A DNA stretch of 9,836 nucleotides. Source: a virus (lineage: Duplodnaviria; Heunggongvirae; Uroviricota; Caudoviricetes). The notes under the pieces are model-generated. The model was given only the letters and a program-made list of their open reading frames with translations, had not been told where the DNA came from and did no database searches. The DNA is taken from the IMG/VR virus record IMGVR_UViG_2563366976_000007; one strand, written 5' to 3'. Position 1 is the stretch's first letter, and every line of letters begins with the position of its first letter. A program made the position numbers and the translations under genes. Below, piece after piece: positions 5,514 to 6,449 of the stretch.

Positions 5514-5759
5514 ATGACAGCGAAGCACACAAAAAAATCACAATCGCACGCCCTTGATTTGACGGAACACTGGTTAAGGGTGTCGATAAAAATCATCGAC
5601 CGCAACGCCGGGGAAGGATACGCGAAAGCACATCCCGACCTGATAAGCGCATTCATGACCACGGCGGCGGCAAACTTTGCCACGCTGACAGAACGGGAGA
5701 TTGCCGAAGCGGAACAGGTAACAACCATCAACGTTAAAACCGGAGAGGTGGAATCATGA
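5514..5759 (+). CDS. Hypothetical protein (81 aa)
   Basis: ORF directly after the iterons. Its stop overlaps the start of the SSB-like gene (ATGA at 5756-5759). Weak SD. No recognisable motif. Confidence 0.55.
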   Translation: MTAKHTKKSQSHALDLTEHWLRVSIKIIDRNAGEGYAKAHPDLISAFMTTAAANFATLTEREIAEAEQVTTINVKTGEVES

Positions 5760-6166
5760 CAGCACAGATAGCCGCTTACGGGCGGCTGGTGGACGACCCG
5801 CAGGTAAAACAGACCAGCAAGGGCACACCGATGACGCTGGCGCGTATGGCGGTATCGTTGCCATGTAGTCAGGCGCAGGATGGACAGGCGACGTTATGGT
5901 TATCGGTCATCGCATTTGGCAAACAGGCCGACTTCCTGGCTAAACATCAAAAAGGCGATGTTGCCAGCGTATCCGGCACGATGCAGGTAAGCCAGTGGAC
6001 CGGACAGAACGGAGAAACGCGGCAGGGCTGGCAGGTTATCGCAGACAGCGTAATCAGTGCCCGCGCGGCACGTCCAGGCGGGAACAGACGCAAAACCACA
6101 GGCACACAGGGTAATCAGCCACCAGCGGGAGGCGATGACCCTTACGGTGATGATATTTCGTTCTGA
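5756..6166 (+). CDS. ssb: Single-stranded DNA-binding protein (SSB-like OB fold with acidic C-terminal tail)
   Basis: 136 aa. The N-terminal ~100 aa follow the SSB OB-fold pattern (GRLVDDPQVK...WLSVIAFGKQADFLAKHQKGDVASVSGTMQVSQWTGQNGETRQGWQVIADSV, compare E. coli SSB LGQDPEVR...WHRVVLFGKLAEV...[27 protein letters not shown]). Gly/Pro-rich linker and C-terminal DDPYGDDISF resembling the SSB DDDIPF tip. Confidence 0.8.
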   Translation: MTAQIAAYGRLVDDPQVKQTSKGTPMTLARMAVSLPCSQAQDGQATLWLSVIAFGKQADFLAKHQKGDVASVSGTMQVSQWTGQNGETRQGWQVIADSVISARAARPGGNRRKTTGTQGNQPPAGGDDPYGDDISF

Positions 6167-6176
6167 GGGGGTGACG

Positions 6177-6449
6177 ATGGTACATGACCGCATAGCGGAG
6201 GAACTGGAGGCGAAAGGCTTTTACCGGAGGGCGGCGGCGCGATGGGGTGAAGTCATGCAGCTGGTGGAGACAGACAAGGAACGGCATCACATCACGATGC
6301 GACGGCTGGAATGTTCAAGGAAGGCACAGAGGGCACCGGAGCCGCCGGATAATTTCGGAGACCTGAAAAAGGCAGTCGATCGCACTTATGCCGAAATGGG
6401 TATAGATGGTGCTGGTGATGAAATATGGCGCAATTACCAGGACAGCTAA
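6177..6449 (+). CDS. PerC/Pch-like small transcriptional regulator (tentative)
   Basis: 90 aa from ATG 6177 (GAGGGGG SD); the track ORF start at 6057 overlaps ssb and is rejected. The motif EELEAKGFYRRAAARWGEVM resembles the conserved core of PerC-family proteins as I recall it. Assignment is from memory and not verified. Confidence 0.5.
   Translation: MVHDRIAEELEAKGFYRRAAARWGEVMQLVETDKERHHITMRRLECSRKAQRAPEPPDNFGDLKKAVDRTYAEMGIDGAGDEIWRNYQDS

Follow-up and report, generated by a model that had tools for sequence, protein, structure and literature searches.

An ssb-perC gene pair at the end of the replication module in an EcCICFT073-type phage-inducible chromosomal island of Escherichia coli

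The ssb-perC locus

The subject of this analysis is a pair of adjacent genes, ssb and perC, carried by a 9,836-nucleotide stretch of viral DNA (IMG/VR record IMGVR_UViG_2563366976_000007), which we refer to as the window, meaning the whole stretch that was analysed. The window is a phage-inducible chromosomal island (PICI) of the EcCICFT073 type, a common phage satellite of Escherichia coli. Its replication module runs from the primase gene through a field of iterons, orf81, ssb and perC to a terminator, with ssb and perC as its last two genes, and an earlier note on this DNA, made from the letters alone, had placed the pair in this module correctly. Both genes lie on the plus strand where that note had seen them: ssb, encoding an SSB (single-stranded DNA-binding protein) of 136 amino acids (aa), occupies 5756-6166, and perC, encoding a protein of 90 aa, occupies 6177-6449; their identities are far beyond chance. 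Both are already named in RefSeq, and they have been described for Sp7, also known as O-island 51 (OI-51), and for PICIs in several papers: OI-51 with a single-stranded DNA (ssDNA)-binding protein and PchE (PMC3378721), the replication category of Gram-negative PICIs as including an SSB (Mageeney et al., PMC10111431), and E. coli PICIs as holding PerC alleles (Fillol-Salom et al., PMC6092414). We consider it probable that the two are the last genes of a helper-inducible early operon, in which the SSB mainly coats ssDNA and the PerC, of the PchE type, is accessory cargo that acts on the host.

The satellite SSB and its C-terminal tip

The product of ssb matches Pfam PF00436 over residues 5-99 with an E-value of 1.7e-16 (60.6 bits, against a cut-off of 26 bits) and scores 57.3 bits on TIGR00621, above the cut-off of 53.95 bits, and is thus a member of the SSB family by both profiles. 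Furthermore, it matches phrog_44, 'single strand DNA binding protein', at 1e-39, among solved structures it comes closest to the SSB 1z9f (6.4e-11), and its RefSeq entry, WP_000126687.1, is named 'single-stranded DNA-binding protein'. The protein consists of an OB fold (approximately residues 5-99), a short linker of about 27 residues (approximately 100-126; ARPGGNRRKTTGTQGNQPPAGG) that is rich in Gly, Pro and Arg, and an acidic tip; its C-terminus reads ...GGDDPYGDDISF, and the tip, DDPYGDDISF, keeps the acidic residues and the terminal Phe.

In E. coli SSB, W40, W54, F60 and W88 are the aromatic residues that stack on ssDNA, and His55 stabilizes the tetramer. Both proteins belong to the OB-fold SSB family and have a linker rich in Gly and Pro and an acidic tip whose last residue is Phe, whereas the satellite protein is shorter (136 versus 178 aa), has a much shorter linker and is only 26% identical in pairwise alignment. 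Three of the four aromatic positions are kept (W54 aligns to W48, F60 to F54 and W88 to W81); W40 is replaced by C37, and H55 aligns to L49. With 26% identity to the host SSB, and 35% to the closest SSB found by protein search among 50,697 phage records, the protein is, judged by its sequence, of a satellite-specific lineage.

The ending DDISF that the earlier note had read is present in the translation, at 6149-6163 on the plus strand, and these residues, D-D-I-S-F, are the last five of SSB-113. E. coli ssb-113 is P176S, and a Pro-to-Ser change of this type impairs binding of chi (PMC3045619). The penultimate Ser of the window protein, Ser135, is encoded by TCG at 6158-6160, where the consensus is Pro (CCG), so that the same change that arose in E. 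coli ssb-113 as a laboratory mutation is here a common natural allele of a satellite SSB. The family consensus tip, DDIPF, equals that of the host SSB: in 120 cluster representatives the tips comprise GDDIPF (66), GDNIPF (26), SDDIPF (6), GDDISF (5) and GDGIPF (3), and the tip is DDIPF in EcCICFT073 and DGIPF in Sakai Sp7. The tip of the window protein is thus not fully host-like, as the earlier note had called it: it departs from the host at the penultimate residue.

Among 5426 complete E. coli genomes, 362 match a 55-mer centred on T6158 and 262 match the C version, in a test in which no 28-nt BLAST seed word can match without covering the variable base; lineages that have been sequenced heavily, O157:H7 among them, inflate both counts. 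The Ser tip is not an error: the allele is common, and the exact window protein occurs on at least 1000 contigs.

These data bear on the proposal of the earlier note, in which the host-like tip of the SSB would recruit host replisome partners to the element or titrate them from the helper and PerC would, upon induction, switch on host virulence regulators (ler and the enterocyte-effacement locus, LEE). Taken as a whole we regard this proposal as quite improbable. For the SSB, it draws strength from the canonical DDIPF tip of most relatives. By analogy with ssb-113, however, the DDISF allele would be expected to bind host SSB-partner proteins weakly, and with the Pro-to-Ser change recruitment or titration becomes a less plausible role here than in those relatives.

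PerC, a predicted four-helix protein of the PchE type

The second gene is equally well assigned. Its product matches Pfam PF06069 with an E-value of 3.9e-43 (146.1 bits, gathering score 22.6 bits) over positions 1-89 of 90, and phrog_994 at 3e-47. The profile searches on which the earlier note had let its case depend thus found both families; its 'PerC-like motif' was the correct family and an understatement, as the protein is a full-length member. The sequence is 90% identical over 90 aa to PchE of Sakai (ECs_1588) and, with the same flanking genes, lies like it next to ssb in an island with a P4-type integrase and alpA, which places it in group 3 (the PchE type) of the Pch proteins. Its RefSeq accession, WP_000233304.1, and hence the same sequence, is also found in O157 strain 180-PT54. 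The family is small, with 313 representatives at E ≤0.001 among 1.84 billion proteins, and the closest PerC by protein search of the phage records is 42% identical. Plasmid matches at about 42% were considered as the perC of the enteropathogenic E. coli (EPEC) plasmid pEAF and rejected; they are a PerC-family gene beside lambdoid phage lysis genes, whose product differs from the window protein in length (104 versus 90 aa).

The gene starts at the ATG at 6177, where the RefSeq start also lies, and a Shine-Dalgarno-like GAGGGGG, read from the sequence, stands 5 nt upstream (6165-6171, plus strand). A mechanically called open reading frame (ORF) for perC, 6057-6449, begins with a GTG inside ssb in another frame and is over-long at 130 aa, with the Pfam match beginning at its residue 41; the database entry P0123 (130 aa, 'hypothetical protein') and similar entries appear to use this over-long start. 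Separately, the 90%-identity database cluster that holds the window PerC also contains partial SSB entries, one of which, P0109, is its representative; the mixture has the look of an artefact of clustering, to which gene calls that were fused or read through may have led.

D4, G14, R17, R18, R22, W23 and C46 are invariant across 100 members of the family, and the G-x-Y-R-R-A-x-x-R-W core and Cys46 are conserved in this Pfam family, to which EPEC PerC and the group-1 proteins PchA, PchB and PchC of enterohaemorrhagic E. coli also belong. An AlphaFold2 (AF2) model built with 100 homologues (predicted local distance difference test, pLDDT, 89.5) predicts a four-helix protein, with helices at 5-13, 16-27, 33-50 and 60-74. 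Searching the sequence against solved structures gave no match apart from a spurious PACSIN at E ~0.01 or weaker, and a Foldseek search of the model against the PDB gave a best E of 2.3, with noise-level TPR/MIT-like helical hairpins, so that no fold was assigned. No helix-turn-helix or other DNA-binding fold is recognizable in the confident model, which hints that PerC, as modelled, may act through protein-protein contacts and not through DNA binding.

Function can be approached through PchE, for which Andreozzi and colleagues (PMC6265319, PMC7369912) reported repression of csgD, curli, biofilm formation and HEp-2 cell adhesion, a strong rise in flagellar gene expression, little effect on the LEE, and a fall in basal pchE expression of more than 6-fold when the SOS response is induced with sulfamethoxazole-trimethoprim. 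By analogy, these phenotypes would carry over to the 90%-identical window allele.

The virulence half of the earlier proposal has to be weighed against this background. The full PerC family membership speaks for it, as does the activation of LEE1 by EPEC PerC and the group-1 Pch proteins, and some PICI-coded PerC homologues are reported to activate the LEE (PMC6092414). The window protein, however, is of the PchE type, and PchE is reported to have little effect on the LEE; according to Pick et al. (PMC11773190), who cite Porter 2005, LEE1-lacZ fusions did not respond to the PerC-like gene of either EcCIEDL933 or EcCICFT073. Published work likewise describes group 3 as not activating LEE1 and as affecting adhesion in the opposite sense to PchA/B/C. 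The PerC-like protein of EcCIMP1 even silences LEE1 (PMC11773190), and the fall of pchE transcripts under SOS conditions runs against a switch thrown by induction. The claim that PerC activates virulence regulators on induction is thus not supported for this subgroup, and what survives is a broader form of host cross-talk, through csgD, curli, adhesion and flagella.

A possible route for such cross-talk comes from the ANR family (for example Aar of enteroaggregative E. coli), whose proteins repress activators of virulence genes and modulate H-NS (PMC11773190). Residues 7-52 of the window PerC (6195-6332) align to nearly the whole of NCBIfam ANR_neg_reg (NF033650), a 54-position model with a cut-off of 32 bits, at a sub-threshold 20.4 bits (E 3.3e-4). 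ANR members are about 55-70 aa long and, like PerC, small and helical, whereas PerC has an extra C-terminal helix and tail; with its length of 90 aa and its score below the cut-off, the window protein is related to the family and is not a member of it. The resemblance extends through the PerC family: 49 of 100 members match ANR at E ≤0.01, below threshold, with a best E of 5e-6, and all ten short PerC representatives (59-75 aa) that were scanned pass the Pfam PerC cut-off, seven of them scoring 26.6-33.8 bits on ANR and one of these seven lying above the ANR cut-off. From these profile scores, homology with the ANR anti-activators is probable for the first three helices of PerC, and Pick et al. 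had suggested as much for EcCIMP1_025, the PerC-like gene of EcCIMP1 (PMC11773190). Taken further, PerC and the Pch proteins would be C-terminally extended members of an ANR superfamily that bind H-NS- or AraC-type regulators instead of DNA, and the satellite would carry one so as to re-tune H-NS-controlled genes of host and island; separately, the Ser-tip SSB would be a selected, partner-blind ssDNA coat. We put this forward as a tentative scheme that is, as a whole, on the unlikely side.

A replication operon beside a candidate origin

The genes upstream of the pair give it its replication context. The first of these (3394-5226, plus strand) encodes a primase-helicase of the D5/P4 type, the PICI replication initiator, which matches Pfam D5_N (1.1e-13), Pox_D5 (9.7e-13) and DUF5906 (1.7e-10) as well as the P4 primase C-terminal region TIGR01613 (4e-27) and is named 'DNA primase family protein' in RefSeq. 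Directly 3' of its stop codon begins an iteron field (5235-5464, without strand), in which about 12 iterons, GGTGAACAGT(T)/ACTGTTCACC, occur in both orientations with AT-rich spacers between them; a repeat search resolves the field into direct families (D1-D5) and pairs of inverted copies (I1-I24). In Gram-negative PICIs the origin has been placed directly 3' of the initiator gene (PMC6092414). This dense field occupies the same position and is very likely the replication origin of the island, a role that we assign on its sequence.

Between this putative origin and ssb lies orf81 (5514-5759, plus strand), encoding a conserved small protein that matches phrog_1231 at 3.1e-50 and has no Pfam or NCBIfam match; its single-sequence AF2 model, with a pLDDT of 65, was not used for a fold search. 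A homologue of orf81 stands 5' of ssb in the loci L001 and L002, in Sakai Sp7, in CFT073 and in a prophage-embedded PICI (L004, NZ_CP151071.1). The stop codon of orf81 overlaps the start codon of ssb in an ATGA at 5756-5759, which makes translational coupling of the two likely, and only 10 nt separate ssb from perC. Directly 3' of perC, a terminator scan and RNA folding predict an intrinsic terminator (6456-6480, plus strand; hairpin 6456-6473) with a 7-bp GC-rich stem and a U7 run (-13.5 kcal/mol, z -3.4), which would close the replication and ssb-perC transcription unit. A promoter scan of the plus strand from the primase gene to perC found no sigma-70-like site.

This setting also bears on a different role for the SSB. 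A Ser-tip SSB could serve chiefly in interference or counter-defence, coating ssDNA of helper or island so as to block steps of helper recombination or replication, or to protect ssDNA from host nucleases and sensors that depend on the SSB tip. Interference with the helper is common among PICIs (PMC6092414), the Ser allele is often found in different lineages, and the SSB lineage is satellite-specific, all of which would suit such a role. It is nevertheless very unlikely, in our judgement: in a PADLOC scan that covered ssb, perC and six ORFs around them, nothing matched a defence family, most relatives keep the canonical tip, the allele counts are swollen by over-sampled lineages, and the position beside the origin, together with the translational coupling within a replication operon, points to a role in replication.

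Distribution and mosaicism of the cassette

The ssb-perC pair is present in 763 of the 5426 genomes (at ≥80% coverage), and ssb alone in more. It travels in a cassette, orf81-ssb-perC-orf74, whose last gene, orf74 (6576-6800, plus strand), encodes a small conserved protein (phrog_1957, 2.3e-42; RefSeq WP_001132079.1) that is also found in O157 strain 180-PT54. A second predicted terminator (6820-6843, plus strand; hairpin 6820-6837; -15.9 kcal/mol, z -4.8) is near-identical to the first, and the two, AGCCGGAG[A/C]AATCCGGCT followed by a U-run, flank orf74.

Pairwise blastn comparisons show the cassette to be mosaic. Sakai Sp7 is homologous to the window over 5574-6841 only, at 94%, which is the cassette itself. 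This element, known also as OI-51, CP-933C or EcCIEDL933, is a capsid-forming PICI of O157:H7 that has the same cassette but differs in its integrase, attachment (att) site and primase region, and 3' of the cassette it carries a complete packaging module of the capsid-forming kind; its SSB (ECs_1587) is 98% identical to that of the window, with DGIPF in place of DDISF, and its PchE differs at 9 residues. An O157 island with a RepA helicase is homologous over 5560-9836, at 96.5%. The prophage-embedded PICI L004 is homologous over 3803-6084, the break falling inside the linker of ssb; it keeps the primase gene, the origin, orf81 and ssb, together with capsid and decoration genes homologous to those of the window, but no perC. 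The presence of ssb beside either a D5-type primase or a RepA helicase shows that it is not tied to one type of initiator; it travels with orf81.

The experimentally validated prototype, EcCICFT073 of strain CFT073, is collinear with the window. Its SSB is 98% and its PerC 83% identical to those of the window, and it shares the order int, alpA, DUF4222 gene, primase, origin, orf, ssb, perC, small orf, capsid (c1499 type) and decoration (c1500 type). It differs in its DDIPF tip, in an 82-aa PerC with a divergent C-terminus and in its site, roxA-phoQ, and has no RefSeq-annotated terS, whereas the window ends in terS and its closest match is at cspD-clpS. The 180-PT54 island that carries the window-type PerC accession is also at the roxA-phoQ site.

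In another locus, L005 (NZ_CP028756.1), a ProQ/FinO-family gene (7446-7991 of that locus) separates ssb from perC, and further downstream (11892-12194) lies another gene of the PerC family. This insertion and the perC-less L004 mark perC as dispensable, optional cargo, and the slot 3' of ssb looks like a hotspot for small regulator cargo. L004 itself sits within a lambdoid prophage, in the gene for the major capsid protein, and has, after its head genes, a TIR-domain gene (10053-11195) that is probably defence cargo. A DNA search of 5500-6900 against the phage records gave no match, and recent capture of the cassette from a known phage was rejected, there being no DNA match and only distant protein relatives (PerC at most 42%, SSB at most 35%).

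Downstream of the cassette, the leader of the head operon has regulatory features of its own. A perfect palindrome, TTGCATAAAATGCAA (6968-6982), lies over a possible -35 element, TATAAT follows at 6990-6995, and a stable hairpin (6993-7024; -13.8 kcal/mol, z -5) with a U7 run stands 5' of the ATG at 7052; the leader, 6968-7030, could be an operator plus a promoter-proximal terminator or attenuator. Such an arrangement could need a regulator, and perC is directly upstream of the packaging module and has PHROG relatives labelled 'transcriptional activator', so that PerC might be the island's own late activator, acting on the head and packaging operon promoter near 6967-7016. The comparisons make this highly improbable. 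The Sakai homology breakpoint at 6841, just after the second terminator, splits perC from the head-operon promoter, and in Sakai Sp7 a 90%-identical perC stands upstream of a wholly different packaging module. The palindrome is present in L001 and L002 and absent from Sakai Sp7, L004 and L005, and L004 has the homologous capsid and decoration genes without a perC. The model of PerC, furthermore, offers no recognizable DNA-binding fold for such a task.

The surrounding element

The remainder of the window is that of a satellite, as the earlier note had recognized: it has int, alpA and primase genes, a pair of head genes (capsid and decoration) and terS, without tail or lysis genes. The features that define a Gram-negative PICI are present, namely int, alpA, a primase with adjoining iterons, few packaging genes, a length of about 10 kb where about 10-15 kb is expected, and site-specific integration; helper-dependent induction is predicted. 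The left part runs int (1-1239), alpA (Pfam AlpA, E 2.2e-16), a minus-strand YlcI/YnfO gene, then an Icd-like gene, a DUF4222 gene and the primase-helicase gene, and 3' of perC follow orf74 with its terminator, the capsid and decoration pair, one more ORF and terS (phrog_57), the last gene of the element. The best genome match is NZ_AP045810.1 (99.3% identity), in which the element of about 10 kb lies between cspD/yljB and clpS. An Rfam scan of the whole window at E ≤0.1 gave no match.

Two of these neighbours merit a comment. The DUF4222 protein (3113-3412, 99 aa) occupies the position that RgdR (ECs1581), a published activator of LEE/type III secretion (PMC3378721), has in OI-51, and is 29% identical to it; the island may thus hold a second family of host regulators, one more relevant to virulence cross-talk than PerC. 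The ORF at 8673-9086 (137 aa) follows the capsid and decoration pair and matches about the C-terminal 75 positions only of PHROG 53, 'head maturation protease' (7e-10), as would be expected of a scaffold like lambda Nu3; together with the neighbouring genes of gpE and gpD type, it hints at a set for capsid remodelling.

Interpretation and significance

The reading that we favour can be set out as follows. The primase-helicase would open the adjoining iteron origin, and the satellite SSB would most likely coat the single strands so exposed, adding to a host SSB that is likely to be limiting when phage and satellite replicate together. Relatives with the DDIPF tip would probably also dock host SSB-partner proteins; the DDISF allele would dock them weakly and act mainly as an ssDNA-coating protein. 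PerC would be accessory cargo, acting on the host and dispensable for the satellite's own cycle; going by the experiments on PchE, it would lower csgD expression, curli and adhesion and raise flagellar expression, with no activation of LEE1.

Several points weigh against this account. First of all, the satellite SSB has Leu for the His55 and Cys for the Trp40 of E. coli SSB, and in the set of papers searched no relevant experiment on any PICI SSB came up. Second, induction and transfer are reported to require three conserved genes, int and alpA among them, and ssb is not reported as essential (PMC10111431). Third, most of the PchE phenotypes were obtained by over-expression from a plasmid in a single O157:H7 isolate, and the window allele differs at 9 of 90 residues. 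Finally, the frequency of the Ser tip (362 genomes) suggests that it is tolerated or even useful, which fits poorly with a tip that is simply 'weakened'.

For the biology of these satellites, the finding of ssb and perC has little significance beyond confirmation, since the phenotypes of PchE are published, and it leaves two minor leads. About half of the genomes with the ssb-perC cassette have an SSB whose tip is identical to the classic ssb-113 defect, and the natural Ser/Pro allele pair thus offers a way to ask whether replication of the satellite needs the host partners of the SSB tip. The resemblance of PerC to ANR at the profile level, in turn, offers a testable mechanism for the PerC family, in which the protein would make contact with H-NS or with AraC-type regulators.

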